DNA of 64,000 nucleotides from an uncultured bacterium (GCA_964387845.1 CAYLXA010000009.1:32001-96000); one strand, 5' to 3'; counted from the stretch's first letter, positions 4,212 to 64,000 are shown. Notes: a model not told the origin generated them from the sequence alone. Numbers and translations are program-made.

Positions 4212-4213
4212 AC

Positions 4214-4246
4214 ATAAAAAATAAGCCCTTCCCTCAAGGGCTTATC
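4214..4246 (-). terminator. GC-rich hairpin aagccct-tccctc-aagggctt followed by a U-tract on the minus-strand RNA. It could be an intrinsic terminator after gpsA or a leader structure before the next gene.
   Basis: Perfect 8-bp inverted repeat at 4224..4244, flanked by an A-run at 4216..4222 on the plus strand (U-run on the minus-strand RNA). Confidence 0.5.
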
Positions 4247-4255
4247 GATGTGAAA

Positions 4256-4284
4256 GTATACCTTATTATTAGGTGTAATTCAAG
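4256..4284 (-). promoter_or_regulatory. Candidate sigma70-type promoter, TTGAAT-17 nt-TATACT read on the minus strand, for the downstream giant gene.
   Basis: The plus strand reads agtata at 4256..4261 and attcaa at 4279..4284, with a 17-nt spacer between them. Confidence 0.35.
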
Positions 4285-6977: not shown

Positions 6978-7057
6978 CATAAGTGGTAAGTGATAAGTTG
7001 TAAGTAGGAAAAATAACTTACCGTTTCTCACTTAGCACTTACAACTTACCACTTAAA
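6978..7057. repeat. Heptamer-based palindromic intergenic element of the GTAAGTG family.
   Basis: cataagtggtaagtgataagttgtaagtagg / aacttaccgtttctcacttagcacttacaacttaccacttaaaac. Confidence 0.75.
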
Positions 7058-7063
7058 ACTAAA

Positions 7064-7645
7064 TTAAGTTATTTCTTCGATTTTCTCGTCTTCCTGAGCG
7101 GATTTTTGCTTCACGAATACTTTTACCTTTGCAGGCCTCAATAATTTCCCGCTCAACATATAACCCGCGATGACTTCTTCGGCAACCGTGTGGTCGGTTT
7201 CTTTTTCGGAAACAATTTCCTCGATTGCTTCATGCACATTCGGGTCAAACGGTTTTTTCAAAACGTCCATTCGTATCAAGCCTTGCGCTTTCAATACTTC
7301 GGCAAGCTGTTTGCGGATCAATTCAATTCCGCTCCAGACCGCTTTTTGCGCCGGATCATCATTTTGATGCAAAAGCGCGCGTTCGAAATTATCCAACACC
7401 GGCAAAAGCTCGTAAAAGAAACCTTCGAGCGCATATTTGAAATAATCCTCACGCTCTTTTCCAATGCGCTTTTTGGCATTCTCAAAATCCGCTGCCGAAC
7501 GCAACATCTGTTCCTTCAGGTTTTCTAATTCCTGAATTTTTTTGAGCAGATTTTCGTACTCAGCTTTCTGCAGGCGCACTTCGTCGGTTGGTTTTGATTG
7601 ATTCGTTTCCATTTCTTTATTCTCTTTTTCTTTATCTTTATTCAT
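7064..7645 (-). CDS. grpE: Nucleotide exchange factor GrpE. The start is moved to the ATG at 7643..7645; the ORF-track 5' extension from 7696 translates the repeat element.
   Basis: GrpE coiled-coil and C-terminal motifs (DFENAKKRIGKERED...GLIRMDVLKKPFDPNVHEAI). The MVRDKFFLTTYNLPLNT extension is the palindromic element in frame. Confidence 0.9.
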   Translation of the reverse strand: MNKDKEKENKEMETNQSKPTDEVRLQKAEYENLLKKIQELENLKEQMLRSAADFENAKKRIGKEREDYFKYALEGFFYELLPVLDNFERALLHQNDDPAQKAVWSGIELIRKQLAEVLKAQGLIRMDVLKKPFDPNVHEAIEEIVSEKETDHTVAEEVIAGYMLSGKLLRPAKVKVFVKQKSAQEDEKIEEIT

Positions 7646-7650
7646 AGTGT

Positions 7651-7712
7651 TAAGCGGTAAGTTGTAAGTGGTAAGAAAAAACTTATCCCTTACCACCTAT
7701 CACTTAGCACTT
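7651..7712. repeat. Heptamer-based palindromic intergenic element of the GTAAGTG family.
   Basis: taagcggtaagttgtaagtggtaag / cttatcccttaccacctatcacttagcactt. Confidence 0.75.
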
Positions 7713-7714
7713 CT

Positions 7715-18816: not shown

Positions 18817-21800
18817 TTATGCGGCGCGTCCCAATTCGATAACGTTACGCAGTTCCGATCTTAAAGATTCCGCAATTTGAGTAATACCAAACGCATTAAA
18901 CAGCGCCTTGACTTCGCTCCGGCCGACAAACACAACCTGGCTTGCATAACGCTTCAGCATTTCGGCTGACGTTGCGTCACTTTCTTTTGAAGCAATAATC
19001 CTGAAATTCTTGGCACCCAATTTCCGAAGTTCTGAGCGCGCCTGGACAAAATCGCGCACAATCACAAAACGGTCTGAGTTTACATCCGCAACCGCGGCCC
19101 GGATGGCAGTTTCGCTGGCCGGATCAAGCGCAATGAGCGCCGTCGGATCGGCCGAATTTTCTAAAATAATCGGAAGTGCCCATAAGACATCCTCGTTAAT
19201 CAAAAGGCCTTCTGTCAGAATATTACCGACTGCCGTTTCTACCCCGGCGCCATCCTGCGCTTGCATAAATTGACGAATAGCCGCTTGAGGTTCTTCGCTT
19301 CTGGCACGGGTAAACTGCCTCCGGCCTGCTTCGACTTTCGACCTGATTCGTGTAGTAACGGCCGCAGGAATCATGGAAGACGTATCCAACGAGCCAAACG
19401 CAGAGCTCGGAACCGCAGTCAATCGCAATTCGGAACGGGTTTCTAGTTTCTGGTTTTTAGTTTCTGGTTTAAACTTGAAACTAGAGACTAGAGACTCGAA
19501 ACTTTCCTTACGAAGTTCGGAACGCTCCCACTTACCCGTCTTTTCAAGCGTGTGCTGCGCAATTGCGTGTTTAGTTTTAATCAAAGACCCCAGATCAAGT
19601 TCAAATTCCGAGGATGTTAAAGTATATGTACCCGAAAATCTGGATTCCAATTGCTGGATGCGTTCCACACCTTCCAGAACCAAAACTTTTGTCATGTTCA
19701 ACTCATGATCAGACTCAAGCCCGAGATCGATACGATGTTGGGTCCTGTTCACAACCGAAACGAGCGCAAAAAGTTCCGAGACCATTTTCCCGAATGCCAT
19801 AAAATAGCTTTGAACTTCTTTCTTATCTTTGATGGCTTTTGCCCCGCCAAACCGTTCTATAAGTTCTTCGCCGGCTTTTTCAACCAAAGCTGATACGTTC
19901 CAAACAATTTCCCAATCACGCTGAAGCGGGCTTTGGTCTGGAATATCCCAGCCTTGCAGCAATTGACGGTCATTCTTCCACACTTCGGATTCCAAATATT
20001 TGAGTACTGCCGATGCAATAACTTGCGAATAAAGGATTTCGTTGGCGCCTTCAAAAATCGTCATGACACGGGCATCCGCGTTAGTACGGGCGACTTGTTC
20101 TTCAACCATAAACCCCGCACCGCCGCGTTTTTGAACCGCTTCACTTGTCAAACGGTTCAGAACTTCAGAGCCCCACGCCTTCGCGGCCGCAGCTTCAAGC
20201 CCTGGTTCCGAAACACCGCCGTCAAAAAGCCCGGCAAGTGAATAGCTAATAGACTCAAGCGCATAGGTGTAAGCTTCCATGTCTGCAAGCGTTTCCTGAA
20301 CAGCGCCCCAATTGGCGAGCTGCGTACCGAACTGTATGCGATCGAGCGACCAATTTAAAGTTCTTTCAAATGAACGGAGCGCACCGCCCCAGCTTCCGGC
20401 TGCGACCGCCGTACGGCCGTGATTGAGAATCGACATGCCGATTTTATTGCCGTCGCCCAATTGGCCGAGCAGATTTTCCTTCGGAACCCGCGCATTCTCA
20501 AAATACACATCGACAGTCGAAGAACCATGAAGGCCTGTTTTGTGGTAGTCGTTGCTGATGGAAATGCCTGCCGCTTTGCGTGCTTCCGCATCCTTCGGGA
20601 ATTCAACGATAAAAACACTCTTCTCGTTTTCACCCGTCATCGCAAATACGGTCATAACATCCATGAAACGGCCGTTTGTGATAAACGCTTTTTCGCCGGT
20701 AATTTCATAATATTCTTCACCGGTCGTTTCATCTTTTTTGAGCACCGCTTTGGTTTTTAAAACCGATTCGCGGTTTAAGCTGTCTGAACCATGCGCGGTT
20801 TCAGTCAACGCGTAAGCGCCGATCCATTCGCCGGTCGCGAGTTTCGGCAGGTATTTCCGCTTTTGCTCTTCCGTTCCGAATTTCACAATCGGAAGCGTTC
20901 CGACACCGCCATGAACACGAACGAGAGAACCCACCGACGGATTGGCATACCACGCCCACATATCTGCCAGTGTTTTCATAATCTTTTTAAAGTTACCCAA
21001 CCCGTATTCTTCGGGAACTGACATCCCCAGCAAGCCCATCTCTCCTGCCTGCTGCAAAATGCCGCCCTCATCCTCAACTTTGACAGCGCCGCTATCAATC
21101 TTTTCGCTTTCCGGAACTACCGCGCTCTTGAAGAAATTGGCGATGGCTTCATTCATTGCATTGATTTCTTCATGACCGGCTAAATCTTCCGGAAATTGGA
21201 GCGTGCCTTCGGCCACATTGGCGCGGCCATATAATAGGAAGTCGCCGGATTTGGGCGTACTTTCGGCGAACGGTACCAGTGCTTTGTCATTCTGAGGCGC
21301 AGCCGAAGAATCTACGGTCGCAGATCCTTCGCTTCGCTCAGGATGACCGGCTTTTGCCTTATCCAGCACTTCTTTTTCCATCGCGTCCATCATTTTCAGA
21401 GTATTGGCGCGAATCAAAAGAGCGTTCTTTCCATTTCTTGCTTCATAGGTAACGGGAACGATCGGCAGTTTTTCACGCGTGACTTTGATTTTGTCAGCCG
21501 CGGGAGCAATAGCGCGGATGTCAATCACATCGCCCGGACGGATGTCATGATTAAAAGTAGCCAGATCGGTCACATTCAGTAATAAATGACCGGGAACGGC
21601 TTCCGCAGACATCCTGGCCGCTACTTTAATGGCTGCAAGAATATTGACAAGTCTCGGATCATTTGATTCGGCAATCACGCGTACACCGTTTAAATAATCT
21701 TCCGTAACCGTTACGGGCAGAAGGCCGCTTGGATTTTCATTTGGCGATGACGTATCTTGAATGCGCGGGCTTGCAGAATCCGTAAAATCAAATATCTGCT

Positions 21801-24800
21801 TCGGAACCGAGTGCGTAACACCTTCGGACCATGCTTTCGCCTGATCGATTTGCGATTGGGTGGGTTTTGAAGTATCAAACGGCTCATCGGCCGGCCTTGG
21901 TTTCATATTGGCAACGATTTCTGCCACCACTTTCCCGGCTTGATTAACAACCTGAATCTTAAGCTTCGCGACACCATTTTCAGAAATACTCATGACTTCA
22001 ATGACCGGTGTCACCACGTCGTCAAACTTCACGGGCGCTGAAAATTTCGCGCTTTCTACCGCACTACCCTCATCTCCGATGCCGATAAATTCATACCCGG
22101 GAAGCTCTTCCTGGGTACGGGCCAGCATTTTAGAAACCGTCAGAAGGCCATGTGCAACCAGAGCGCCAAATTTGGACGCTTCCGCGTATTCTTTGAGTAA
22201 GTGGAAACGGTTGCGGTCGCCTTCCATCGCGAAGAGCTTGACCATCCACTCGCGCATGATGAGCGCGTTTCCGAGAATCTTTTGGCCGGCGAATACGGAA
22301 AGTGCGTTGTCTTCCGTGCGCCCGCCCGGACGAAGCGCTAAGAGAAGTCTTGCGCGCGCCTTTGTATAACGTTCTTTTTCGGCATCGCTCAAAATACCAG
22401 GGATTTTCATGGCGCGTTCCATTTGGATAAACGGAATGCGCGCGGATGCAGCATCTACGATTTCAAGCGCGCCGGTCACAGGATCTTTGAATCCGACAGC
22501 GCCAAGGCCGCGGTCTTGATCGGCAACGGCGTAATCTTCGATAATCGCAAGGTCGCGCTCAGTTGAATTTTTCCATGCTTTTGCGTACGCTTTGCCTGCA
22601 TCACTCTTGAGCCATTCTTTCTTGGCCGCTTTGCCTTCATCCGTTTTCAAATCAAATACGGGCATCGCACCGACCGTGTCAGCGCGTTGCGGACTTAACA
22701 AGCGGTTAATTTCATCAACTTGATTGGCTTTTGCAAGTTTTCCCGCGAAACCCCAATTGGCGACACGTTCCGCTTCATGCGTTACATTTTCATCACTGGA
22801 ATAACCATCGATCGCGTCAATTTTTGAATATGCCGTGAGAGCAATAAAAAGTGAGTGATAATAATTGTAACCTTTCGTTGTCGGATCATCTTCGGCCTCA
22901 TGAACCATATTGCCGTCAACATCGAAAATCGCGGCCGTTACGCGGCGGCTTGCACGCATGATCGACTGCGTTTCCGATTCCTCAAACGCTTTTGCTTCTT
23001 GTTCGATTGCTTTAGGGTCAGAAATGCTGGGTACAATTTCAAACCCTCCCGTGAGATATCTATAATCATGTTCAAACTCGGATAGAAAACCGTCTAGCTC
23101 TCTGATTTCTTTTGCGCTTTGTGTGTTTTGATACACAATACCCGTAACAGAGGATGCGAGTAATGGGAAAATATCCTTAAGTCTTTCGATTGGATTTGAC
23201 TTTGCAGTTTCAATCCAAATAATCTTTTCATGCTCGCCCGGGAGCATCAATCCTTTAAGTTTTTGTATAGAATCCTTGAAAGAACCGTCTTGCCACCACG
23301 AAGCCGGTGCGGAATCTAAATTGATTTTAATGATATCCACCTCTGAATTCATTGCTATATTCAGAGCTTCATAGTCATTTACGTCAACACTTACGATTGA
23401 TCGTGCCAATGACACATCGCGCGGAACGAAAACTTCGGGCGGAAGAATAGGTTTGCTGTCGGCTGCCATTTTGTCGAGATCGGCCAGTTTTATTTCGGGT
23501 AATTTTTTGTAATCGTAATCCGGATGTTTGCGGATGACAGGCGGAAATTGGCCGAGGAATGGCTCCATTCCCTTCAAGTGGTTCGGATGAACGCTCCACT
23601 TGCGGTTCATGCCGATCTTGATAAATTTTTCTGTGTCGGCTGTGGTCGGCTCAACTTCAAGTTTCACGGTAATGCCGGTACCCGCCACTTTTCCGGTTTT
23701 CTTTCCGGCTTCAACGATATCGAGAAGCGCTGAGCGCATATACGGAAATTGCTCATGCTGCACTTCATTTTTCCCGCCGGTTGCGGCTGTGTAATCGACA
23801 ACGCCAAGCTGTGCTTCTTCTACTTCCGGAGCAATTGATAAAATCCGTTCAGCGTTCAAAGTTCCACCGGGAAGTTCTGTGAGCACAAATACTTTATGAG
23901 AACCGACGGGGCGATTGACCCATTTTTGTTCGGCTTGAATCGCACGCAGATTGGCAACACCGATGCGGACATCCTGCGGGCCGAATACTTTCGGCATATA
24001 AATACCGTCTATCAAATGGCCGATGGCGCGAAAGACGATGGAATAATCGCCCGCGGACCACTTGGTGCGCAGATTGTTCGGACGGAACAGAATCATCTGG
24101 TCTTTATGGAAACGCGCTTCTTCTTTTAATTGGAAGCGTCTATTGCGCGAATGAATCTCATCCCACTCGTCTTCTGACAACATCCGGTAATCCGAATAAT
24201 CGGTGTCATCCGGCAATTCAATAAGATATTTGTCGATCGGATCTTTTTCGTCGTTGGCCTGCAAAGCATTCTTTTTCAAGAAATCAACTTGCTCTTGTGT
24301 GAGGATTTCGCCCTTGAACAACCGGATCAATTGAATAATGACTTCGCGCGCAAGTTCCTTGCGGATGGTCGCTACGGCATCTTCCAAATCTAATAGAAGA
24401 ATCGGAGCCTTCATGCCCGCGCGTGCGGCAAGCAGCATGAATTTCCAGTTATCACCGGGAAACACATTTTGGACTTCGCGCGGCATGTACTCCCACGCAA
24501 GCCGTGCGGCAACTTCATCAGCCGTCACATCGGGCTTCACGACTTTCCAATTTTCGTAGCGGTAATTGAGGTCTTTCACGGCATGAGCTTCATCATTGCC
24601 AAACGCGGTCAGCAATGCCTGCTTCACTTCCGCATTCGTCACTTGATCGAGCGAAATTTCCCGTAATTCGGAACGGACAAACTCGGGGCTCTTCAATCTG
24701 TTGCGGTCAATTTTTTGAAGGTCGCCGGTGCGCGGAAGTGAGGAAACAATCACAACCCGCTTGGGTGCTTTGTAATGGGCAAGTGACTCTTTTGCGGATT

Positions 24801-27800: not shown

Positions 27801-30800
27801 CAGCTTCGATATTGGGCGTCCAGATTTCAACCTGCTGGATACCTTCGCCGAATTTGGCAATATGTTTTGTAATCGTATTCCGCGGGCTATCAGGCGTATC
27901 CGTTAAAATATCAAGGATTCTGGGCGATCCATCAGCCCCGCCGACGGTGATTTCGAACTCATTAACGCCGACACCTGTCGGAACATCGGAAAGCGGATGA
28001 TCTTGCTCGCCCCACAACACACGGATTTTGGCAAAATTTTCGGCCGATACGGCAAGCCCCGCCGAAGCAGCGCTGGAGTGGCCGATTGCGGGCAAGAGGT
28101 CTCTTTCCACGGGAACGGAATGATTGTAAATAACCGGATTTTGGCGGACAACATCAATCAATTGGTCGCCCGCAATCGCAAAAATCCGCGCTGCATACTC
28201 TCTGATCTTGGGATCATCTGACACCAAGTCTGCGGTTGTGACGACTCGTGTTTTTGAAAACGGTTCGCGGGCATCGCGAACGAGCGGCTCGGGCTGCGGA
28301 TTTGGTCCCTCACGAAACGCTGTGACCCCCACAAGCGGCGTAAGGCCGGCAACAATTTTTGCGGTTTTCATGTCTGCTGCGCGTGTAATATCAGAAGCTG
28401 AAACGGGCACATCCTGCAGCAAGAACTTCCTGGTTGCATCAATCAATTGGCTGGTTAACTCTTCAATCACGAAGGAACCGCCCAAGGGGTCACGAACGCC
28501 CTCAAGGCCGGCTTCATATTCCAGTACGGCGACCGTGTCTTTGGCAAGCTGTTCCGCCCACGCACTCCAGCGGGTACGAATACCGAACGGAAGGTCAAAC
28601 GGACGAACTTCGATTTTCTGGGCCCCGCCCAATTTCGCGGCGAATGCCTGAAGGGCACCGCGGGCGATGTTATTCCATGATTTTTCGGTTACAAGAGATG
28701 AAGCATCCGTGCGGGCAATGATGCGAAGCTGTTGGGCTTCGGTGTCTTCGATGCCCTTCTCTTTCAGTAACGTTGCCCACAATTCCCGAGCTACACGGAA
28801 TTTTGCCACATTTTCAAGAAATTGGTTTCCTGCATTTAATCGAAAAACAACTGACCGTGCGCGCTCGGTTTGTATTTTTGAGTCATCGGCTGCGAAAACA
28901 AATTCAAGCGCTTTGTGCAGTGACCACGCCAATTCTTGCGCTGCCGTTACTCCGGTCTCACCGAGTTCAAAACCATTGACCACATAACTATTAGCCGCAT
29001 CCTCGATTTCACGATTAATTCCGCCGGTGTAAGGAAATTGTGCCGACTCCGGCTGATTAAATGACGGTTCCGGAACAGAAGCCAATTGCGCTGATTGTTC
29101 GGTCAAGTAATTCCGAAGTTTTTCATTGAAAAGCGGTACAAACTCGCCTTCCCACGGCGTTTCACGGTCCGCAACGCCGAAAACATTTTTCAAACGTTCC
29201 GTAATTTCACCGATAGTCGCATAAGCTTCGACCGCTTCGATGATGGACGGCATCAGGTTGGTTGATTCGGACTTAGCGGCGGCTTCAACCGCGTCTAACT
29301 TTTCCGCAACCAGCGTGTTATCTCTTTCTGATTTTAATTCTTCAAGCGCTTCGATTTGCTTGGTACGGAATGTATCGCCTTTCGAATCAACGCTGAAAAT
29401 TTTAACCGGCGGCGCCAACTTGTCGCCTTCGGTTTCTATATTCACACCGACTACCTTTTTTGTTCCGCTGTCAATGGCCTTGGTTTCCTCATAGGCATGT
29501 TGAAGCACGCGCTCATTTAAGTCGCTTAATACTTTGGTTAAATCGCTTTGCTTTACATATTCACCGAGCATGGACCAAACCTGGCGCTCGATACGGTCCG
29601 TCAATGTTTCCACATAACTGTTCTTGGCGCCGCCCAAAGGATCAATAAATTCGGTGATTCCGGTTTCATTCAAAACAATATTGCCGGTATCAAGAGAAAT
29701 GGCCTGGCTTTCCGCCGTCGGGATAGCAATCGCCTCATCAAACGAAGTGGTATTAAATCCCTGAGCGCCGGTAAATACCGCTGTGACGGTCCGAATCGCA
29801 TCACGGACAATATTGACATGCGGCTTATGAGCGCGTAAGTCGGTTCCGCCCGTGTAAGCCTGGACGCGCCAATGCATCGCGCGCGGATCTTGAACGCCGA
29901 AACCCTCCTTCATGATCTGCGCCCAAATGCGGCGCCCGGCACGGTATTTCGCGACTTCCTCAAGCGAATTCATTTTCACGTTCATGAAGAAGGAGACCTG
30001 CTTGGCAACCTCTTCAACATTTTGGCCGGCTTCCTGCGCCACGGTTAAATATTCGATTCCGGAAACGAACGCGGAAACCAGTTCTTCAACAGCCGTCGCG
30101 CCGGCTTCACGCGCGTGATAACCGGTCACGCTAATAGTATTGAAATAAGGGACAGCGTCTTTAGCAAAAGCAAAAATATCGCGAATCAGCCGCAAAGAAG
30201 GCTTAAGCGGGAAAATAAATGTGTCGCGGCGGCCCACAGCCATTTCTTTAATAATATCGTTCTGAACTGTTCCGCGGAGTTCTTTTACATCCACGCCGGC
30301 TTTTTTCGCGGCCGCGATGAACATGGCAAGCAAAATAGAGGCAGGTGCGTTGATTGTTTTAGAAACACCGATTCGTTTCGCGGTCAAGAGCTTCATCACT
30401 TCAGGCGTAAACAACGCTTCATAATCTTTTAATGAAGCAACCGAAATTCCGGCTTTGCCCACTTCCCCGAGTGTTAATTCGTTTGTCGGATCCAATCCTA
30501 GCTGTGTCGGGAGGTCAAACGCGGTGCTCAAGCCTGTAGCCCCTGCTTCAATTTGCTTCAAGAAAAGTTCTCGAGTTTCATCAGCAGTGCCAAAACCGGA
30601 ATACTTTCGATTAACCGGAAGCCTGCCGCCAAAACGTCCGACATACATCGACGGATGAATGCCGCGCGTAAACGGATATTGTCCGGCTTGGCCAAGCACG
30701 CCCAGCGCGATATGCAGCTCGCTCCTGTTCGCCGGCCGTCCGCTCATTTCAATGACTTGCGCAACCCACTCCGCAGGCGCGCCTACCGGTCCGCTAACCG

Positions 30801-33800
30801 CCGCTTTGGCAGCAACCGCACCGACTCGTTCTTCAGGGGTCGGCTCTTGTGTCCCGGCGTCAAAATCGTATCCCTCTAACCACGCATCCGCATCAAATCC
30901 CGAAGAAGCAGCGCGAAGCTCGCTGCGGATTCCGCGTACTTCTCTAAATTTCTGTTCGCTTTCTGCCGTAATCTCATCAACCGACCGAAGCAAACGTTTA
31001 TTAAATTCTTCCGCTGTCATTTCTTGAATCTCTTTCAGTGCGATCGCAATATCTTGATCCTGCTGCTTCTTTTGCAAACGTTCGGTTAGCCGTTTGATCA
31101 GAAACGCGCGAAATTCACGATGCTTCATGTTTGTCACATCTTCATCACCGATCGTGAGTAAAATTTGTCTGTATCGGATTCCCATGGACGGATCCAACGC
31201 GAGCGCGGTGAAATGATTAAGCATTTCCTGGGATACATCGCCCATTTCACGGAGGACGGCTTCTTTGTTAGCATCGCCAACCGTAATCGGACCCGTTGTG
31301 CCGATCAGCCCGGCCGCGTCGCTGCCAGATGTGCCTTCAAGTAATTCTTCTGCCGTATAAGGCGCCTTGGCTTCTTCAACCGGGAAAACCCATTCGCCTG
31401 CGGCGCGCTCTGCTTGAAGGCGCTGCATTTCCGCGGTAAGGTGCGATTCAAAACTTGCAACCGAAACATCTAGAAGCTTCTCATAAGCGGCATTAATTTT
31501 CTCGCCTTCTGCTTCGTTTTCTTTCGCGACTCTCTGGTAACGCTCCTGCATTTGTGTTTTGATTTCATCCAAAATTTCAGCCGGAGATTTATTTTCGATA
31601 TTAATTTCGGGAACAGTTTTTAGAATTTCGATGTAAACATCGCCGCGTGCCGGATCAGCCGCACGCGCAATCGCATAAGCTTCCGCCACCGCAAAAATAT
31701 CCGGAAGCCTATTTTCTATTCGCTCAAATAATTCATCTGTGTCCGGCTCAAGGCCCAAAGCTTCCTGCACGGCGGCAGAATCTGAATGAGCAATGGCCTG
31801 CCACGCTTCAAAAACAGCGGACGACAATTTATCTTCCGCCGGGGTTCTGGGCTCGTAGGCCGCGTAAGGATCGTAAACGATCCCCTGCTCTTTGGCGGTT
31901 TCAATCACTCGAAGCGCAAGTTTTATATTCCGGACCTGGTCACGGTGAACCTGTTTTTCATAAGCTTCGGCGATGGTTTTAATACCGCCTTCTTGAACAC
32001 CGGCCAAAATATTATTCTTGCCCGTTCCTTGTGATTCAACGGCCTTGGGCAAATCTGGCCACGAGAAAAGTTTTGCCGGAGGCGGAATAATTTCGCCGCG
32101 CATGATCCAGTCAACCACGGCAGATGCCTCAGAGCCTGACGCGTAATGCGAGCCCAGCATGACTTTGCGGCTTAGTAAAATGGAAACTTGCGTCATCCAG
32201 GTATTCGCCGCGTGATAACGAAGCGATAGCTTGGAAGTATCGTTCGGATAAATAATTTGAGAGAAGAAACCAACAAATGTGAGCGGGTTTAGAATTTGTT
32301 CACCGTCTTCACCATCCCACAGTACCACCGACACATCCGGGCCGAATGGGGTTCCGTCTTTTCGCTTTCCAAAAACTTCGCCCAGAGCCTCGCCAAAAGG
32401 CAGAACAACGGAAGTCTGATAAGCACTGAACGCTTTCTGCCGTTTTTCGAATTCACTATTTTCATCAGCGGTTGACGTGTCAGAAAGCACCTGCGGAGGG
32501 TCGGGCATCCGCTGAAAATACCGCCCGGCGCTTTCGGCAGACGCGTTTAGCTGCGCCTGAACTTTACTTAGAATTTCACGCACAACTTCTTCGGATTGGC
32601 CGAGTTCTGAAATGAATTTTTTATTTTCTAGAATGTTGCCAAAATTTCCTGATTTCACCTCATCAAAAATTGATTTACCGAATGAAAGCGGAATAATGCT
32701 CTTCATTTTTTTGTCTTTGATTCCGCGTTCTTTTAAAACAACTTCGAATGCTTGGCGCAAACCGACCACATTTTGAACATGATCAAGGCGTAAAATTCCG
32801 TCCGGCACTTTACGGCCAAATTTTGTACGTTCGTCTAATAAACCCCAGTTCCGAATGACGGCTTCTTCAGCTTGATCGCGGGCAACTACAACAACTGTCG
32901 CGCGGTTTTTCTTTGCCTCAATCACAGATTCTTTTGCACGTTCATCGGACCCTGCGACCATGACTCGGCGCATTCTGGGAACGCGGTAACGATTACTGCG
33001 TAAATTTTTAGCACGGGCAAACATCACCGAAATTGGCGCATCATCACGCGTTCCGAAATGCTCGTGAGCAAAACCTGTGGCTCCGGCTCCGAAAAATGCG
33101 GCTTGGCCGCCCATGTCATTCGGATCTTTTGGATCGCCTTCGCGAAGTGCTGCAAAATGTAATCCCGCCATCTTTTGGCCGGAAGAAAACAGCGCCTTAT
33201 TCGGGCGTGCTCCGGGACGCCCAAGACGTTCCATTGCCTTGTCTACTGCAGCCACATAACTAGCTTCATCGGAAATGGATGTACGATAAATAACTTCGTC
33301 CGCGCCATAAACTTTTCTTGCCACTTCTTCATTTTGTGCACTTGAAACGGTTGTAATGACTTGAGCGCCTCGAAATTTTGCAAGCTGAGTTGCCGGTCCA
33401 CCCGTACCGCCCGCGCCGCCCTCATTGAGAAGGACTTGATCCTTTTTAACACCAAGCACGTTTAGCGCGTGTTCAACCGTTGGATAAACAAGACCAACAG
33501 GCCCTAACTGTTCAAAATCGTAGGCGCCGTCTTCTACCCGGACAACTTCGATGGCGCTCAAAACGGTTTCCTGTCCAAAACTGCCTTCAAAAGCATTTTT
33601 AGCTTCATACGCCAAAATGCGGAAACTTCGGTGCGCTTGCGCGCTTCCGCCGAATGCGTCCAGAACCAAAAGATCATGGGTTCCGCTGAGCATAATCACC
33701 ATATCGCCGACTTTGAGCGCATTCTGCTGGGACGCCAACGACCCGACTTCGGTAACGATCATGAGGCCGGCACTGCCGAGCACGGTTCCTAATTCTTTAT

Positions 33801-35973
33801 GAAAACGCGCGATATCAATCGGAAAATCGCGAGTTGCCCATACGCCATTGGCGTTGATGTCGGCAAGGATGGTCCGCAAACGGACTTGATGCGGCTCAAC
33901 TGGTTGAACGGAAATAATACCTTCTTCAAATACTTGGGTCGCAGGGCCCTTCCGGCCGCGCGGTTTTACCCACACCCTTTGATAAGCTTGTTTTTCAAAA
34001 GAACCGTCAGGAAGTTTTTCGGGCAATCTGCCGATGCGAAGCTGTTTCAGTAAATTAGACGGCGCATACTCGTCGCCTTCTAATCTTGATAATAGGTCAA
34101 GCTGATCAACGATATCCTCAATACCATGCCGAAGCGCCCAGCCAAACGGCCCGGAGGTGACAACGCCCATTTTTTCGCCGATTTTCCGGTAATTGGCATC
34201 TTCGCGGGTAATCGCAAAAATACCGTCGTCAAACCGGATACCTTCTCCGATTTTTGTCGGAAAGTAAGTGCCCCACCGCATCGCTGTTTCAACATCGGCA
34301 AGCGTCGCGGTTCCGTCATCCACGGCCCTGGCGGCTTCGTTGACCATGACATAAAGCAGCCGGTTGGGATCAAAACTGCTGACATCTTCGTCGTATTTAA
34401 TTTTCCAGCCTTTTTCTTGATTCCAAGTGTTGAAAAGCGAAATGGCTTCCGCATCATCCTCGGGCTTTCCTTTCGGATATTGATAAAAACCCTTGGCTGA
34501 TTTGCGTCCGAGGCGTCCCTCCTCCGAAAGCGCTTGCACGATCGGATCCGGGCTGAAATATGAATTCAAGCCGTGATGCAGACTTTCCATGATGGAATCG
34601 TTGGTATCGTGGCCGATCGTGTCCATCAAATCAAACGGATCCATCGGCATACCGAATTCTTTCGCAGCAGCTACAATTTGCTTAAAAGATGCCTGGCCCG
34701 TGCGCAGCAAACGAAGCGCTTCATTAAAATAGGCATAAAGGACGCGATTGACGATGTAGCCGTTGTTGTCTTTGACAACAACCGCGACTTTGTTCATTTG
34801 CTTGGCGTAGGTTTTGGCAAGCTTGACAACATTTGAATCTGTGTGAGCAGTCGGCGCAATTTCAACCAACTTCATGAGCGGTACAGGATTAAACGGATGA
34901 AAGCCGATAACCCGCTTCTTCCATGCGTCCGGCAAATCGGTAATCAAATCGCTCACCCGCAAAGATGAAGTAGTGGTGCCGATCATGCGGAGCGAAACCG
35001 GCTTGCCCGCTGCCGCGCGCCTTTCAGCCTCCTCAACAACGGCCTTGAAAAGTGCTTTTTTGAAACTGGGGTCTTCGCTGATGGATTCAATCAAGATTTC
35101 GGGGTCATCTGCGAGGAGCTCTGCTACGTGCTCTTGAATGGTTTCGCCCGTAAAAGTATGCAGGTTTGCTTTCCACGCATCGACTTGGGCGGTCTTTTCA
35201 TGTGTTTTTTCGCTGATTTGTGCGTCAATTGCGGCCGCATCGGCTCCCTGCTCGGTTTTTTTCTTCTTCAGCGCTTTAATACCGGTCGATATTTCGGCGG
35301 CAGAATCCAGGGCGGCAACAATACTGTCTTTCCGGTTGGGATCAATCGCTTCATGCATTCGGTCGCGGTGGCGCGTGGCAATACCGACTTGAATACCGGA
35401 TGTTAACGAATTAACCGCAACTCCCTTTCCTATAATACCGGCGCCGAAGACCGCTACACGCGATACCGAATGCGGAACATCATTGCGGAGTTCAGACCGT
35501 ACGATCGCGGTGTATGCGAATGCAACTTGCATCGGTGCGGGAATCACAAGCAATGAGTTGTTAATTGACTGGCGAATCGCCGATACGGCTCGCGCCGCAA
35601 AATTAGAAATGGAAGAGACAAGATCAAAAGAAGCGCCTGATGAGCGTACGCTTTCAGTCGCTGCAGAAACTTGATTGCCTGATGCCGGCGTTGTGTCGAG
35701 ACCAGTTACAATGCTCGCATTAGGATTCAATTCCTCGTCAACGCGGGCTCTGCTGGTTTTTGCCGCCAGGCCAAGCAAGTCGCGGACTTCAGCTGAAACA
35801 CTTCCTGCGTTTTCGGCTGCTCTAGGCGGAATCGTGTCGTTTTGCTGGCTGACAGACGGAAAAATGTAAGAAACTTCGGAATAAGCGATCGTATTGGTAA
35901 ATGAAAATGTGAGGACAAGGACTGCTGAAATAATTTTTTGAACTGATTTTGCCGGCGAATTTTTCATTTTCAT
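18817..35973 (-). CDS. Giant polyprotein-like gene of 5718 aa. It has a signal-peptide-like leader and a string of CoA-ester metabolism modules: 3-hydroxyacyl-CoA dehydrogenase, an MDR-type enoyl reductase-like module, methylmalonyl-CoA mutase, a second 3-hydroxyacyl-CoA dehydrogenase, an AMP-forming acyl-CoA synthetase, an HpcH/HpaI-like lyase, an acyl-CoA dehydrogenase, and the conserved C-terminal domain. Eight exact RSELR motifs plus one variant.
   Basis: Stop-free frame of 17.2 kb with an ATG start at 35971..35973. Leader: MKMKNSPAKSVQKIISAVLVLTFSFTNTIAYSE. Confidence 0.8.
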   Translation of the reverse strand: MKMKNSPAKSVQKIISAVLVLTFSFTNTIAYSEVSYIFPSVSQQNDTIPPRAAENAGSVSAEVRDLLGLAAKTSRARVDEELNPNASIVTGLDTTPASGNQVSAATESVRSSGASFDLVSSISNFAARAVSAIRQSINNSLLVIPAPMQVAFAYTAIVRSELRNDVPHSVSRVAVFGAGIIGKGVAVNSLTSGIQVGIATRHRDRMHEAIDPNRKDSIVAALDSAAEISTGIKALKKKKTEQGADAAAIDAQISEKTHEKTAQVDAWKANLHTFTGETIQEHVAELLADDPEILIESISEDPSFKKALFKAVVEEAERRAAAGKPVSLRMIGTTTSSLRVSDLITDLPDAWKKRVIGFHPFNPVPLMKLVEIAPTAHTDSNVVKLAKTYAKQMNKVAVVVKDNNGYIVNRVLYAYFNEALRLLRTGQASFKQIVAAAKEFGMPMDPFDLMDTIGHDTNDSIMESLHHGLNSYFSPDPIVQALSEEGRLGRKSAKGFYQYPKGKPEDDAEAISLFNTWNQEKGWKIKYDEDVSSFDPNRLLYVMVNEAARAVDDGTATLADVETAMRWGTYFPTKIGEGIRFDDGIFAITREDANYRKIGEKMGVVTSGPFGWALRHGIEDIVDQLDLLSRLEGDEYAPSNLLKQLRIGRLPEKLPDGSFEKQAYQRVWVKPRGRKGPATQVFEEGIISVQPVEPHQVRLRTILADINANGVWATRDFPIDIARFHKELGTVLGSAGLMIVTEVGSLASQQNALKVGDMVIMLSGTHDLLVLDAFGGSAQAHRSFRILAYEAKNAFEGSFGQETVLSAIEVVRVEDGAYDFEQLGPVGLVYPTVEHALNVLGVKKDQVLLNEGGAGGTGGPATQLAKFRGAQVITTVSSAQNEEVARKVYGADEVIYRTSISDEASYVAAVDKAMERLGRPGARPNKALFSSGQKMAGLHFAALREGDPKDPNDMGGQAAFFGAGATGFAHEHFGTRDDAPISVMFARAKNLRSNRYRVPRMRRVMVAGSDERAKESVIEAKKNRATVVVVARDQAEEAVIRNWGLLDERTKFGRKVPDGILRLDHVQNVVGLRQAFEVVLKERGIKDKKMKSIIPLSFGKSIFDEVKSGNFGNILENKKFISELGQSEEVVREILSKVQAQLNASAESAGRYFQRMPDPPQVLSDTSTADENSEFEKRQKAFSAYQTSVVLPFGEALGEVFGKRKDGTPFGPDVSVVLWDGEDGEQILNPLTFVGFFSQIIYPNDTSKLSLRYHAANTWMTQVSILLSRKVMLGSHYASGSEASAVVDWIMRGEIIPPPAKLFSWPDLPKAVESQGTGKNNILAGVQEGGIKTIAEAYEKQVHRDQVRNIKLALRVIETAKEQGIVYDPYAAYEPRTPAEDKLSSAVFEAWQAIAHSDSAAVQEALGLEPDTDELFERIENRLPDIFAVAEAYAIARAADPARGDVYIEILKTVPEINIENKSPAEILDEIKTQMQERYQRVAKENEAEGEKINAAYEKLLDVSVASFESHLTAEMQRLQAERAAGEWVFPVEEAKAPYTAEELLEGTSGSDAAGLIGTTGPITVGDANKEAVLREMGDVSQEMLNHFTALALDPSMGIRYRQILLTIGDEDVTNMKHREFRAFLIKRLTERLQKKQQDQDIAIALKEIQEMTAEEFNKRLLRSVDEITAESEQKFREVRGIRSELRAASSGFDADAWLEGYDFDAGTQEPTPEERVGAVAAKAAVSGPVGAPAEWVAQVIEMSGRPANRSELHIALGVLGQAGQYPFTRGIHPSMYVGRFGGRLPVNRKYSGFGTADETRELFLKQIEAGATGLSTAFDLPTQLGLDPTNELTLGEVGKAGISVASLKDYEALFTPEVMKLLTAKRIGVSKTINAPASILLAMFIAAAKKAGVDVKELRGTVQNDIIKEMAVGRRDTFIFPLKPSLRLIRDIFAFAKDAVPYFNTISVTGYHAREAGATAVEELVSAFVSGIEYLTVAQEAGQNVEEVAKQVSFFMNVKMNSLEEVAKYRAGRRIWAQIMKEGFGVQDPRAMHWRVQAYTGGTDLRAHKPHVNIVRDAIRTVTAVFTGAQGFNTTSFDEAIAIPTAESQAISLDTGNIVLNETGITEFIDPLGGAKNSYVETLTDRIERQVWSMLGEYVKQSDLTKVLSDLNERVLQHAYEETKAIDSGTKKVVGVNIETEGDKLAPPVKIFSVDSKGDTFRTKQIEALEELKSERDNTLVAEKLDAVEAAAKSESTNLMPSIIEAVEAYATIGEITERLKNVFGVADRETPWEGEFVPLFNEKLRNYLTEQSAQLASVPEPSFNQPESAQFPYTGGINREIEDAANSYVVNGFELGETGVTAAQELAWSLHKALEFVFAADDSKIQTERARSVVFRLNAGNQFLENVAKFRVARELWATLLKEKGIEDTEAQQLRIIARTDASSLVTEKSWNNIARGALQAFAAKLGGAQKIEVRPFDLPFGIRTRWSAWAEQLAKDTVAVLEYEAGLEGVRDPLGGSFVIEELTSQLIDATRKFLLQDVPVSASDITRAADMKTAKIVAGLTPLVGVTAFREGPNPQPEPLVRDAREPFSKTRVVTTADLVSDDPKIREYAARIFAIAGDQLIDVVRQNPVIYNHSVPVERDLLPAIGHSSAASAGLAVSAENFAKIRVLWGEQDHPLSDVPTGVGVNEFEITVGGADGSPRILDILTDTPDSPRNTITKHIAKFGEGIQQVEIWTPNIEAAAADIVEAAKSKTSGIILVDQAPRPGANGTTVFFTLVSIQGGKKVLTELVQMPRSELRSRHEDNYVAVLGAGKMGSRIAQVAAQNGELWTSLYDISPEMIQKAQKTLQDSFRKAHENGKLSEAQLGQLDNLLDYGTSLPEAVASKGIIIEAAVEDKAVKQALFRQLDKLAKEGAILATNTTTIPIEELAEAVSAERKQYVIGIHFQLPAHVNELVEIVVGRETSPETVERAKMFVRTVGKTAIVVKSQPGFVTSRLIIPVLNHALRIADEGAPATILGGIGVNMENVNFATIDEAFKMALGAAQGAAELVAKYIAPDIVANSQRILHSAYPDQFYAPSPSLLDFESQFNEARRVEFSAGETLPNNVVGAVRDFILGGVFLVAWQLIDENAILDVESPEEAKEGIDVAVRLAFKWEKGIFKQMTEIGAAGVLSLVQEVADRYSVTIPRSLLEWVSDAPQPVNMEDLDLNPSPMVPDHATISMRAQVTSEIEARNYHIVRMIDDAIEKYPKQTIRLARSASAVVPMENQSITYEQLGQWAGRFSAELIRSGIEKGDRVAVMMPNSAYDLAVDLGIWRAGAVRVPFETLWNRSDIVRHLKETGAKALVILTDYYRKDDLRNIVQEFPNLRIYVSDLGEHRLRHGTAKVLDDIFNTPTNGAPSRRPVYEKNIAQLSPSTGTSGTPKIVAQTHANIAATLGQYQDWLKDVEPGPAVIPLQPKTYGTHVVFASMLQGRPIILAPRLPYNQTSASFVDGLAQTLAESNAKLLFAVPAIFHSLAQSGRKFPGLIGLSRGSALGKVKGAFEEATGARLIEGYGLTEATSTITNPINAEKPGTVGKPNRDVVARVVKPGTWDIIAGSQEGELIVSAPQVMREYWNDPKATKEALTQKIGLTWVRTGDLATIDSEGYVTITGRTKNVIITGSQNVNPGEVEKVISNFQGVNEVAVVGINDPAYFDQVVHGEAGVISDDDFAELVGHFDEVVVAFVTEAWFGALKGREEEIIESAKESLAHYKAPKRVVIVSSLPRTGDLQKIDRNRLKSPEFVRSELREISLDQVTNAEVKQALLTAFGNDEAHAVKDLNYRYENWKVVKPDVTADEVAARLAWEYMPREVQNVFPGDNWKFMLLAARAGMKAPILLLDLEDAVATIRKELAREVIIQLIRLFKGEILTQEQVDFLKKNALQANDEKDPIDKYLIELPDDTDYSDYRMLSEDEWDEIHSRNRRFQLKEEARFHKDQMILFRPNNLRTKWSAGDYSIVFRAIGHLIDGIYMPKVFGPQDVRIGVANLRAIQAEQKWVNRPVGSHKVFVLTELPGGTLNAERILSIAPEVEEAQLGVVDYTAATGGKNEVQHEQFPYMRSALLDIVEAGKKTGKVAGTGITVKLEVEPTTADTEKFIKIGMNRKWSVHPNHLKGMEPFLGQFPPVIRKHPDYDYKKLPEIKLADLDKMAADSKPILPPEVFVPRDVSLARSIVSVDVNDYEALNIAMNSEVDIIKINLDSAPASWWQDGSFKDSIQKLKGLMLPGEHEKIIWIETAKSNPIERLKDIFPLLASSVTGIVYQNTQSAKEIRELDGFLSEFEHDYRYLTGGFEIVPSISDPKAIEQEAKAFEESETQSIMRASRRVTAAIFDVDGNMVHEAEDDPTTKGYNYYHSLFIALTAYSKIDAIDGYSSDENVTHEAERVANWGFAGKLAKANQVDEINRLLSPQRADTVGAMPVFDLKTDEGKAAKKEWLKSDAGKAYAKAWKNSTERDLAIIEDYAVADQDRGLGAVGFKDPVTGALEIVDAASARIPFIQMERAMKIPGILSDAEKERYTKARARLLLALRPGGRTEDNALSVFAGQKILGNALIMREWMVKLFAMEGDRNRFHLLKEYAEASKFGALVAHGLLTVSKMLARTQEELPGYEFIGIGDEGSAVESAKFSAPVKFDDVVTPVIEVMSISENGVAKLKIQVVNQAGKVVAEIVANMKPRPADEPFDTSKPTQSQIDQAKAWSEGVTHSVPKQIFDFTDSASPRIQDTSSPNENPSGLLPVTVTEDYLNGVRVIAESNDPRLVNILAAIKVAARMSAEAVPGHLLLNVTDLATFNHDIRPGDVIDIRAIAPAADKIKVTREKLPIVPVTYEARNGKNALLIRANTLKMMDAMEKEVLDKAKAGHPERSEGSATVDSSAAPQNDKALVPFAESTPKSGDFLLYGRANVAEGTLQFPEDLAGHEEINAMNEAIANFFKSAVVPESEKIDSGAVKVEDEGGILQQAGEMGLLGMSVPEEYGLGNFKKIMKTLADMWAWYANPSVGSLVRVHGGVGTLPIVKFGTEEQKRKYLPKLATGEWIGAYALTETAHGSDSLNRESVLKTKAVLKKDETTGEEYYEITGEKAFITNGRFMDVMTVFAMTGENEKSVFIVEFPKDAEARKAAGISISNDYHKTGLHGSSTVDVYFENARVPKENLLGQLGDGNKIGMSILNHGRTAVAAGSWGGALRSFERTLNWSLDRIQFGTQLANWGAVQETLADMEAYTYALESISYSLAGLFDGGVSEPGLEAAAAKAWGSEVLNRLTSEAVQKRGGAGFMVEEQVARTNADARVMTIFEGANEILYSQVIASAVLKYLESEVWKNDRQLLQGWDIPDQSPLQRDWEIVWNVSALVEKAGEELIERFGGAKAIKDKKEVQSYFMAFGKMVSELFALVSVVNRTQHRIDLGLESDHELNMTKVLVLEGVERIQQLESRFSGTYTLTSSEFELDLGSLIKTKHAIAQHTLEKTGKWERSELRKESFESLVSSFKFKPETKNQKLETRSELRLTAVPSSAFGSLDTSSMIPAAVTTRIRSKVEAGRRQFTRARSEEPQAAIRQFMQAQDGAGVETAVGNILTEGLLINEDVLWALPIILENSADPTALIALDPASETAIRAAVADVNSDRFVIVRDFVQARSELRKLGAKNFRIIASKESDATSAEMLKRYASQVVFVGRSEVKALFNAFGITQIAESLRSELRNVIELGRAA
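19437..19507. repeat. In-frame palindromic heptamer element (TTTCTAG/CTAGAGA type) inside the 5718-aa gene. It is flanked on both sides by RSELR codons and by a 9-bp direct repeat, TTCGGAACG.
   Basis: Element tttctagtttctggtttttagtttctggtttaaacttgaaactagagactagagactcgaaact. The direct repeat is at 19429..19437 and 19516..19524. The element translates as KESFESLVSSFKFKPETKNQKLET between two RSELR motifs. Confidence 0.7.
19800..21250 (-). other. Acyl-CoA dehydrogenase module.
   Basis: AYALTETAHGSDS and GGAGFMVEEQVARTNADARVMTIFEGANEI. Confidence 0.7.
23560..24650 (-). other. HpcH/HpaI aldolase / citrate-lyase-beta / malyl-CoA-lyase-like module.
   Basis: LLLDLEDAVA motif and overall architecture. 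Assignment is tentative. Confidence 0.45.
24700..26350 (-). other. AMP-forming acyl-CoA synthetase/ligase module.
   Basis: SPSTGTSGTPK, GYGLTEATS, and HYKAPKRVVIVSSLPRTGDLQKIDR. Followed by RSELR. Confidence 0.7.
26750..27615 (-). other. 3-hydroxyacyl-CoA dehydrogenase module 2.
   Basis: VAVLGAGKMGSRIAQ Rossmann motif directly after PRSELRSRHEDNY; HFQLPAHVNELVEIV. Confidence 0.65.
28300..30740 (-). other. Methylmalonyl-CoA mutase-like catalytic module.
   Basis: QYPFTRGIHPSMYVGRF, YSGFGTADETRELF, TGLSTAFDLPTQLG and DPLGGSFVIEELT. Preceded by the RSELH variant. Confidence 0.7.
34470..35460 (-). other. 3-hydroxyacyl-CoA dehydrogenase module 1.
   Basis: VAVFGAGIIGKG, GFHPFNPVPLMKLVEI, GYIVNRVL and GRKSAKGFYQY. 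RSELR immediately precedes the Rossmann fold. Confidence 0.7.
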
Positions 35974-63952: not shown

Positions 63953-64000
63953 CAAACTTAATTGGGGCAGCGAATCCCAAACCCAAACGGGAGCGTAAAC

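Follow-up and report, generated by a model that had tools for sequence, protein, structure and literature searches.

Why should a bacterium join the enzymes of acyl-CoA metabolism into one chain of several thousand residues? The question is raised by gene E, an open reading frame (ORF) in a 64,000-nucleotide stretch of DNA from an uncultured bacterium (GCA_964387845.1 CAYLXA010000009.1:32001-96000), here called the window, from whose first letter all positions are counted. We found that E belongs to a family of giant proteins built from a leader, a short pro-region with one or two R-x-E-L-R motifs, a variable enzyme cargo and a C-terminal domain, and that cysteine is almost absent from the family. 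The motif may be a processing site at which these proteins are cut into enzyme units. The enzyme string had been described before from the sequence alone (hereafter the original prediction), in an account that called E and the adjacent gene D polyprotein-like, correctly in our judgement, and that was incomplete in missing the leader, the [RK]SELR motif, the near-absence of cysteine, the C-terminal domain and the origin in the phylum Omnitrophota.

Gene E is one uninterrupted gene

18817..35973, minus strand: gene E, ATG-start ORF of 5718 amino acids (aa), multi-enzyme precursor of the leader / R-x-E-L-R / C-terminal-domain family

The 5718-codon ORF of the original prediction was recovered at the same coordinates, on the minus strand and with an ATG start. 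A chance ORF is excluded because 17 kb at ~49% GC contain no stop codon, the probability of such a stop-free run being (61/64)^5718 ~ e^-274. A 5718-aa E gene was likewise called on an independent Logan contig from sample SRR15237813. We conclude that E is real and a single gene, and that it belongs to a Candidatus Omnitrophota bacterium.

A search for internal promoters or terminators that would split E into separate transcripts gave no excess over shuffled sequence, and a TTGACT...TATGTT promoter-like pair upstream of E was dropped for its spacer of only 12 nucleotides. The GC content of the enzyme-dense part of E (window 20001-34000) was 0.49-0.52, that of the neighbouring giants slightly lower at 0.46-0.48. 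Two other identities for the locus were discarded. A polyketide synthase or non-ribosomal peptide synthetase cluster, guessed from the gene sizes, was ruled out by Pfam, in which KS, AT and C domains were absent; the AMP-binding domain scored best as a fatty-acyl-CoA ligase, and the only ACP-like domain lies in gene F. An alternative genetic code or fused-gene artefact was ruled out by an ORF without any stop and by the normal cysteine codon use of the neighbouring DnaJ.

A pentapeptide under selection at module junctions

35782..35796, minus strand (aa 60-64): degenerate first motif SAEVR, followed by DLLGL; aligns with the first RSELR of the paralogues
35485..35499, minus strand (aa 159-163): RSELR motif 1, seven residues before the Rossmann strand of the first 3-hydroxyacyl-CoA dehydrogenase (3HCDH 1)
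30913..30927, minus strand (aa 1683-1687): RSELR motif 2
27628..27642, minus strand (aa 2778-2782): RSELR motif 3, eight residues before 3HCDH 2
24661..24675, minus strand (aa 3767-3771): RSELR motif 4, 17 residues past the end of the acyl-CoA synthetase
19510..19524, minus strand (aa 5484-5488): RSELR motif 5
aa 5513-5517, 5646-5650 and 5705-5709, minus strand: RSELR motifs 6, 7 and 8, within the C-terminal domain

E contains eight copies of RSELR. Together with the giant genes A, B, D and F on the same strand it accounts for 48 occurrences against 0.03 expected from composition, a ~1,500-fold excess. Position -1 was R or K at 49 of 51 SELR sites, and the flanks showed no conservation. Since the 53 motif sites use 51 different 15-mers, with all synonymous codons in use, selection acts on the peptide and not on the DNA, and a DNA-level repeat or recombination site is ruled out on the same ground. 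Not one of the 53 sites fell inside a Pfam domain (P ~4e-9), and several lay 7-20 residues from a domain edge. In E, motif 1 runs directly into the Rossmann strand of 3HCDH 1 (RSELR-NDVPHSVSR-VAVFGAGIIGKG).

Across the family the density was 3.0 motifs per thousand amino acids (kaa; 168 in 55,616 aa), and the flanks were rich in S, P, T, N and A and poor in aromatic residues. The first motif occupied residues 54-58 in 9 of 18 members, ~25 aa past the leader, and a second often followed ~40 aa further on; in the alignment of the degenerate first motif of E, columns E62, R64 and L67 were invariant. Inter-motif segments were shorter than 50 aa in 34 of 186 cases, and 14 of 42 strong internal transmembrane (TM) helices had a motif at most 30 residues ahead of them, against 9% expected (P ~1e-5). 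One member from another lineage, P0069 (5710 aa), had shifted as a whole to RPEFR, RPELR, RAEFR and RSEFR, from which we derive the consensus R-x-E-Φ-R. Motif positions were kept at orthologous junctions, while the 40 residues around them were only 20-30% identical and rich in indels; overall identity was 44-50%. Strong selection acts on the motif peptide at module junctions.

Leader, cysteine exclusion and C-terminal domain

35875..35973, minus strand (aa 1-33): conserved putative Sec-type leader, MKMKNSPAKSVQK-IISAVLVLTFSFTNTIAYS followed by E, with basic n-region and hydrophobic core
35500..35556, minus strand (aa 140-158): borderline hydrophobic segment ending at the first RSELR, Kyte-Doolittle mean 1.66
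18820..19449, minus strand (aa 5509-5718): family-specific C-terminal domain, opening with motif 6, holding motifs 7 and 8 and ending ...GRAA

The leader is common to all the giants (profile ...F[ST]FT[SN]S.AYS[DE]), and its end, A-Y-S before E or D, resembles a signal-peptidase site. The segment at aa 140-158 of E may be a second membrane segment. Internal TM helices were found in B, D, F and Z, and by hydrophobicity and the positive-inside rule both flanks were basic at many of them.

Not one cysteine occurs in the 5718 residues of E, and A, B, D, E and F together have two in 17,611 aa; cysteine content is normal in the neighbouring DnaJ, HrcA and GpsA. Among 17 family members (47,168 aa) we counted 17 cysteines (0.036%), compared with 1.09% in ordinary fused Hbd/ACAD/crotonase proteins used as controls (19,511 aa, in which the motif was also absent), so that cysteine is ~30-fold depleted relative to ordinary homologues. 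The exclusion of cysteine, together with the leader, points to an extracytoplasmic, oxidising space through which the chain would pass, or in which it would reside, at some stage.

The C-terminal domain is present once per protein, measures ~170 aa across the family and ends ...[SA]A. An AlphaFold 2 model (core predicted local distance difference test 85-95) gave a five-stranded Rossmannoid alpha/beta fold of generic type, with no invariant catalytic residues. The C-terminus of E is homologous to those of B (30% identity, 1e-17) and P0053; a protein search with the last 229 aa of E returned no match, not even E itself.

Enzyme modules of E

34471..35466, minus strand (aa 170-501): 3HCDH 1 (3HCDH_N + 3HCDH), GxGxxG intact (VAVFGAGIIGKG)
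32833..33978, minus strand (aa 666-1047): MDR-type enoyl-CoA reductase/carboxylase (Ccr)-like domain, TIGR01751 87 bits, under cutoff
30928..32832, minus strand (aa 1048-1682): unannotated stretch of ~640 residues, still in module 1, weak CitG/FERM matches only and no near homologue
29173..30693, minus strand (aa 1761-2267): acyl-CoA mutase substrate barrel (MM_CoA_mutase, 610 bits), TIGR00641 595 bits against a cutoff of 304
28312..28995, minus strand (aa 2327-2554): MutA (small-subunit)-like second mutase domain, from a 6oxc_B match and permissive Pfam
27649..27882, minus strand (aa 2698-2775): weak glyoxalase / methylmalonyl-CoA-epimerase-like stretch, TIGR03081 E=1.3e-4
26779..27606, minus strand (aa 2790-3065): 3HCDH 2, GxGxxG loop intact
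24724..26247, minus strand (aa 3243-3750): AMP-forming acyl-CoA synthetase (AMP-binding + AMP-binding_C), STGTSGTPK, YGLTE and TGD intact
23584..24144, minus strand (aa 3944-4130): HpcH/CitE-type lyase (HpcH_HpaI), best PDB matches malyl-CoA/beta-methylmalyl-CoA lyases
aa 4334-4435, minus strand: weak second CitE/RipC-like stretch
21904..22263, minus strand (aa 4571-4690): MaoC-type (R)-hydratase domain, by Pfam, NCBIfam and PDB match
19651..21246, minus strand (aa 4910-5441): VLCAD/ACAD9-like acyl-CoA dehydrogenase (ACAD; N/M/C), catalytic Glu kept (IFEGANEI)

Modules were annotated with Pfam and NCBIfam, and the gaps were rescanned at permissive Pfam thresholds. Both databases bore out the predicted inventory and order of two 3HCDH enzymes, MDR-type reductase, mutase, synthetase, lyase and ACAD, to which we add the MaoC domain, the MutA-like domain, the epimerase-like and second CitE/RipC-like stretches and the ~640 unannotated residues. 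This last stretch and the other gaps in E gave only noise-level matches at permissive Pfam thresholds. Residues 4315-4435 (window 22669-22974, minus), between the lyase and MaoC, gave weak PDB matches to WD40-repeat proteins. In total E contains at least 12 distinct Pfam families, none in more than two copies.

The cargo is divided by the motifs into four modules, followed by the C-terminal region. Module 1 comprises Hbd, the enoyl-CoA reductase-like domain and the unannotated region; module 2 the mutase barrel, the MutA-like domain and the epimerase-like stretch; module 3 the second Hbd and the acyl-CoA synthetase; and module 4 the malyl-CoA-lyase-like domain, the MaoC hydratase and the ACAD. 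No inactivating substitutions were seen, the catalytic signatures of the mutase, ACAD, synthetase and both 3HCDH being intact where checkable. Because most NCBIfam scores lay far under curated cutoffs, with the mutase barrel as the exception, we regard the E enzymes as divergent homologues. The reductase was closest in the PDB to the reductase part of chain 6eqo_A (81 bits, compared with 47 bits for the stand-alone Ccr 4gi2), an 1850-aa protein deposited as 'Acetyl-coenzyme A synthetase' that we take to be the Erythrobacter propionyl-CoA synthase (PCS).

Aligned to 4r3u, 8gju and 1req, the mutase barrel keeps Tyr (RKYSGFG), Arg (RRDTFIFP) and Tyr-His (GYHAREAG), residues whose roles we presume from the P. 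shermanii methylmalonyl-CoA mutase (MCM). We found no PF02310 match in E and no DxHxxG downstream of the barrel. As judged from these alignments and profiles, E has a barrel like that of a mutase large subunit and no complete second mutase; a partner B12 domain may be supplied in trans.

Neighbouring giant genes

59462..64000, minus strand: gene A, E-family member with more than 1512 codons inside the window and cut by its end, matching the C-terminus of P0059
51386..59173, minus strand: gene B, 2595 aa, E-family member with a Glu/Leu/Phe/Val dehydrogenase module, many TM helices, 16 motifs and no cysteine
49773..51341, minus strand: gene C, 522 aa, putatively exported, Tiki/EreA/ChaN/TraB/RRSP fold
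36245..49771, minus strand: gene D, 4508 aa, E-family member with nine motifs and two cysteines
8929..18741, minus strand: gene F, ~3270 aa from the likely ATG, E-family member with ACP-like domain, GTP-PEPCK and triose-phosphate isomerase, no cysteine
1..4279 (L001:12818-21122), minus strand: gene Z, 6161 aa on the Logan contig, running off the window start and beginning after gpsA

Genes A, B, C, D, E, F and Z form a same-strand run in which all but C (522 aa) are giant. P0059, the full-length A (4770 aa), carries two RidA/L-PSP domains, a UDP-glucose pyrophosphorylase-like domain (UDPGP) and phosphoglucomutase (PGM). F has 15 [RK]SELR (17 SELR). Z consists of the leader, a ~480-aa gene-C-like domain and then RSELR-separated modules, including CheR-type and other methyltransferases, with no cysteine in the 2768 residues covered. 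The proteins of hrcA-grpE-dnaJ-gpsA served as an internal control, with normal cysteine content and without the motif.

In D, an AprA-like domain and an MT2-like methyltransferase (MT) at the N-terminus are followed by three TM helices, two MeaB domains, a mutase barrel with B12 domain, a further MT, biotin carboxylase and carboxyltransferase, and an AAA/kinase-like domain. The original prediction had counted two methylmalonyl-CoA mutases, one in each gene. The D copy is complete, with barrel and B12 domain (PF02310 at 2519-2627, DxHxxG at aa 2528, GLDGHDRG), and aligns to human MUT residues 67-718; the E copy, as described above, lacks the B12 domain. The two barrels, being only 31% identical, are old paralogues and not a recent duplication. 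A biotinyl-attachment motif (AMKM) was not found in the carboxylase module of D.

The toolkit for acyl-CoA activation, oxidation and rearrangement that had been proposed for D and E together was confirmed. Compared with the ethylmalonyl-CoA pathway set (Ccr, Epi, Ecm, Mcd, Mch, Mcl, Pcc, Mcm), D and E hold every superfamily of an ethylmalonyl-CoA or methylmalonyl-CoA type route, D contributing two MeaB, the B12 mutase, biotin carboxylase and carboxyltransferase. Profile scores point to a match with either enzyme set at superfamily level; at orthologue level (Ccr 87 against 379 bits, Mcl 22 against 500, ACAD and MaoC far under curated cutoffs) substrate specificity is not readable from them.

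Two further features of the region are recorded here. The ACP-like phosphopantetheine-binding domain of F (aa 1333-1385, DSL intact) is preceded by QSELR and followed by RSELR, and lies upstream of the GTP-dependent PEPCK and triose-phosphate isomerase, which have no motif between them. Between giants F and Z (window 4398-8743, minus) lie hrcA-grpE-dnaJ without dnaK, then a gpsA-like gene.

Host lineage, relatives and module shuffling

Gene C had 35 homologues, and every named one came from Candidatus Omnitrophica/Omnitrophota, indirect evidence on which we place the host in the phylum Omnitrophota. In three other genomes the neighbourhoods of the gene C homologue again contained oversized enzyme-domain proteins: PGK+PGM (1661 aa), HMGL-like (862 aa), enolase (1226 aa), UDPGP+GluDH (1875 aa), PPDK-like (2695 aa) and a 3903-aa protein with a faint SIS match. 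Where the C homologue was 86% or 63% identical, in the two closer relatives, RSELR was the top 5-mer of the oversized proteins and cysteine was ~0; neither applied to the most distant relative (C homologue at 32%).

To this we added an exhaustive HMMER search in which a leader profile of 80 positions, with E among its four sequences, was run against 1.84 billion representative proteins. Only 26 proteins matched, all at residue 1 and mostly of 1-6 kaa. The E family is apparently rare, restricted to Omnitrophota and undescribed. The module string of E had no close relative in the collections searched: genome and metagenome contigs yielded only ordinary enzymes at 22-33% identity, searches with module 1 only ordinary Hbd fusions, and only the ACAD module was shared, at 40% identity, with P0069. 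By eye, the cargo of P0069 includes histidine-phosphatase-like, HAL/PAL-like, pyridoxal-phosphate-dependent and transketolase/E1-like regions besides the ACAD.

Gene D corresponds to a 2454-aa gene of a relative (AprA-like MT ... biotin carboxylase-carboxyltransferase) with an insert from a separate 1918-aa gene. The insert is the mature part of that gene (MeaB-MeaB-mutase-B12), with breakpoints that fall on motif sites. Shuffling moves the modules as whole units.

In the closest relative (L009:2247-9863, same in L008) the 862-aa HMGL-like ORF, with leader and no C-terminal domain, is in frame with the 1661-aa PGK+PGM ORF, which has the C-terminal domain and no leader and is separated from it by one stop and 14 codons. 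The same gene calls were made in two independent assemblies, and the split may reflect recent fission of one gene, readthrough of the stop codon or a pseudogene. Directly after the gene C homologue this relative has a 118-aa gene (L009:11613-11969) with bAvd / 23S_rRNA_IVP Pfam matches, resembling the accessory protein of diversity-generating retroelements; it has no counterpart in the window, where C and D abut.

Gene C as a candidate peptidase

Gene C belongs to the Tiki/TraB/ChaN/EreA superfamily, in agreement with a weak Pfam ChaN match. It resembles erythromycin-esterase-like proteins (2rad, 2qgm, EreC), ChaN, HopBA1, a TraB-family protein and the Ras/Rap1-specific endopeptidase RRSP, and its invariant residues are H72, E100, E152, R437 and H465. 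In Z a gene-C-homologous domain stands directly behind the leader and is followed by RSELR. Fold and gene neighbourhood make gene C a candidate for a peptidase acting on the motif.

Processing site or docking signal

We put it at about even chances that the motif is a site-specific processing site, that E-family proteins are polyproteins and that gene C is the candidate peptidase. The precursor would be synthesised as a single chain that its leader directs to the membrane; the [RK]SELR motifs in the interdomain linkers would be recognised by a site-specific endopeptidase, for which gene C, with its Tiki/EreA/ChaN/RRSP fold also fused behind the Z leader, is the candidate, and the precursor would be cut into modules, probably on the C-terminal side of the second Arg, which is followed by small residues. 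Such a strategy would give fixed stoichiometry from one gene. The position of the motif right at the natural termini of enzyme units, in short, indel-prone linkers, and the occurrence of gene fusion and fission breaks exactly there are the classic signature of a polyprotein cleavage site. Gene C is no more than a candidate for the peptidase: its superfamily fold also includes esterases and a haem-binding protein, and a distant gene C homologue adjoins a giant protein without the motif. An extracytoplasmic placement conflicts with the cofactor needs of the enzymes (ATP, NAD, CoA, B12, FAD). The motifs are clustered, the 34 segments of less than 50 aa fitting multivalent binding better than enzyme release, and two motif copies lie in helices of the C-terminal domain. 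These last points favour instead an uncleaved docking or assembly signal, with the proteins persisting as intact membrane-tethered multi-enzyme scaffolds, the main rival explanation, which we regard as possible and somewhat doubtful. Its partner could be the family's own C-terminal domain, gene C, a chaperone or a translocon component, and one binding domain with many motifs per chain would yield a cross-linked, metabolon-like mesh or surface coat. A single conserved C-terminal domain without invariant catalytic residues is what a binding or oligomerisation module would look like, motifs precede TM helices beyond chance, the coherent drift of the motif in P0069 fits a co-evolving receptor as well as a protease, and a cell coat has been proposed for Omnitrophota giant proteins (PMC10066038). 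However, no partner was found, the coincidence of motifs with unit termini and gene breaks speaks for cleavage, and docking leaves unexplained the fixed position of the first motif ~25 aa past the leader, which is like that of a pro-peptide boundary.

Another view takes E for a soluble multifunctional enzyme of the cytoplasm, its parts fused for substrate channelling as in PCS or FadB/FadJ and its leader and motif incidental. It would suit a cargo made up of acyl-CoA enzymes with intact catalytic motifs and cytoplasmic cofactors, and a reductase most like that of the 1850-aa 6eqo_A. We consider it improbable: domain order and content are unlike PCS or FadB, the leader is family-specific and conserved across genomes, the motif is positionally conserved in its ~1,500-fold excess, and cysteine is ~30-fold depleted. 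Because the paralogues carry unrelated enzymes (TIM, PEPCK, PGM, GluDH) and multiple TM helices, pathway channelling is not the organising principle. An assembly chimera, decaying pseudogene or wrong genetic code is hardly credible at all. E is known from one sample only, and the relative's two family ORFs split by a single in-frame stop show that boundaries can shift; against this, 17 kb without a stop of any kind cannot be created by stop-codon reassignment, the catalytic motifs are intact and the coding is continuous, an independent contig has an identical gene call, related genomes from other samples carry the family with the same features, the adjacent DnaJ uses cysteine codons normally and the motif is not a DNA repeat.

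Processing could also be part of a larger scheme, which we think unlikely: an Omnitrophota clade would encode much of its central carbon and acyl-CoA metabolism as Sec-exported, cysteine-free polyproteins, cut at R-x-E-L-R by a Tiki-like peptidase, with the enzymes working outside the cytoplasm in an enlarged periplasm, a surface coat or a host or prey cell after delivery. Enzymes seen in such proteins include PGK, PGM, enolase, TIM, PEPCK, GluDH, B12 mutases, carboxylases and beta-oxidation-type enzymes. If true, this would amount to outsourced, extracytoplasmic metabolism in an ultra-small episymbiont.

Comparison with known systems

The original prediction had likened E to PCS, and like PCS it is a very large fusion with an AMP-forming CoA ligase, a hydratase and an MDR-type enoyl-CoA reductase. 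The analogy held at one domain, the reductase, with its preference for 6eqo_A (81 against 47 bits); it failed for the arrangement, ligase, hydratase and reductase lying in separate modules and in another order. PCS has the order ligase, crotonase-type dehydratase, reductase in ~1850 aa, whereas the E reductase stands ~2300 residues before the ligase with two motifs between them, the E hydratase is MaoC-type without any ECH/crotonase match, and PCS has no leader, motif or cysteine exclusion. Nor is E a FadB/FadJ-type fusion, the other comparison proposed: there is no crotonase domain (no PF00378) with either 3HCDH, and both match only the C-terminal dehydrogenase half of FadB/FadJ models (profile from ~332 or 380), at 125-160 bits against cutoffs of 869-968.

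Gene D resembles IcmF in fusing MeaB G-protein chaperones to a B12 mutase. In IcmF the order is B12 domain, G-domain, barrel; in D it is MeaB, MeaB, barrel, B12 domain, within 4508 aa. The E barrel without B12 domain is like the large subunit HcmA of HcmAB, its best PDB match, and differs in its MCM/ECM-type specificity residues (Tyr, Arg; Ala at the placed HcmA Asp117) by our own residue mapping.

Among proteins known to be cut into modules, MARTX toxins are 3.5-5 kaa long and contain shuffled effector modules freed by site-specific cleavage in interdomain linkers; they use type I secretion, have C-terminal RTX repeats and an internal cysteine protease domain cutting after Leu, and their modules are toxins. 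The likeness extends to a variable module set and to the effector RRSP, which has the fold of gene C. However, RTX repeats, a type I secretion signal and the cysteine protease domain are absent from Pfam scans of A, B, D, E and F, which have a putative Sec-type leader instead, and the E-family modules are central-metabolism enzymes, not toxins. Viral polyproteins (flavivirus, potyvirus) and the gingipains RgpA/Kgp/HagA of Porphyromonas consist of units split by a short recognition sequence with basic residues in variable linkers; in flaviviruses TM segments are interspersed, and in gingipains the modules stand between a signal peptide with pro-region and a sorting domain at the C-terminus. The E family likewise has a basic-residue junction motif in variable linkers, a leader, a pro-region and a C-terminal domain. 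It differs in having no embedded protease domain in E, a metabolic cargo and an alpha/beta Rossmannoid C-terminal domain, that of the type IX secretion system being a beta-sandwich, and cleavage of E is putative. Plasmodium PEXEL (RxLxE/Q/D) and oomycete RxLR, host-targeting motifs of eukaryotic pathogens, are processed Arg/Leu motifs ~20-30 residues past a signal peptide, and fungal Kex2 proteins repeat their site. The Arg/Leu motif of the E family is similarly repeated and at a fixed distance past the leader, as an analogy only: the sequence is R-x-E-L-R, the domain of life is another, and the motif occurs throughout multi-kaa enzyme strings.

We know of no bacterial case of polyproteins for housekeeping metabolism, and if the R-x-E-L-R junctions are processing sites this would be the first, with a simple sequence rule for splitting giant proteins into functional units. 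Cysteine exclusion and an export-type leader on cofactor-dependent enzymes raise the question of where an ultra-small, host-dependent bacterium runs its metabolism. Because modules buried in such giants score far under curated cutoffs, metabolic reconstructions of Omnitrophota could overlook their enzymes or score them wrongly. Three sequence handles, the motif, the leader and the C-terminal domain, can serve to find and dissect further members.

Giant ORFs of Omnitrophota were already known (Seymour et al., PMC10066038; West-Roberts et al., bioRxiv 10.1101/2023.11.21.568195), and a 'multi-enzyme metabolic cluster' class of proteins of at least 10 kaa has been defined (class 1 of Nielsen & Lui 2026, bioRxiv 10.64898/2026.06.07.730766). 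The Omnitrophota giant-protein papers had already speculated on post-translational cleavage and suggested that peptidase domains of the C39 and S8 types might do the processing, of which we found none here; West-Roberts et al. stated that missing cleavage-point information blocked their analysis. Metabolic domains predicted to be extracytoplasmic present the same paradox in the giants of at least 10 kaa (bioRxiv 10.64898/2026.06.07.730766). In term searches cysteine was unmentioned in all three papers, and the word polyprotein was unused in bioRxiv 10.1101/2023.11.21.568195 and 10.64898/2026.06.07.730766. Literature searches found no report of a recurrent junction pentapeptide, conserved leader or shared C-terminal domain, only the R package varSelRF for 'RSELR', and nothing relevant on an Omnitrophota polyprotein, cleavage motif or cysteine-free protein or on Velamenicoccus fusion proteins. 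E shares with class 1 the phylum, many enzyme Pfams tiling one chain with none dominant, and a signal peptide and/or TM helices. It differs in size, that catalogue covering at least 10 kaa while E has 5718 aa and its family 1-6 kaa, and the family differs from the published Omnitrophota giants in a cargo of core glycolytic/gluconeogenic and acyl-CoA metabolism. The E family is a distinct, sharply defined family within the known long multi-enzyme proteins of Omnitrophota, with a candidate processing code.

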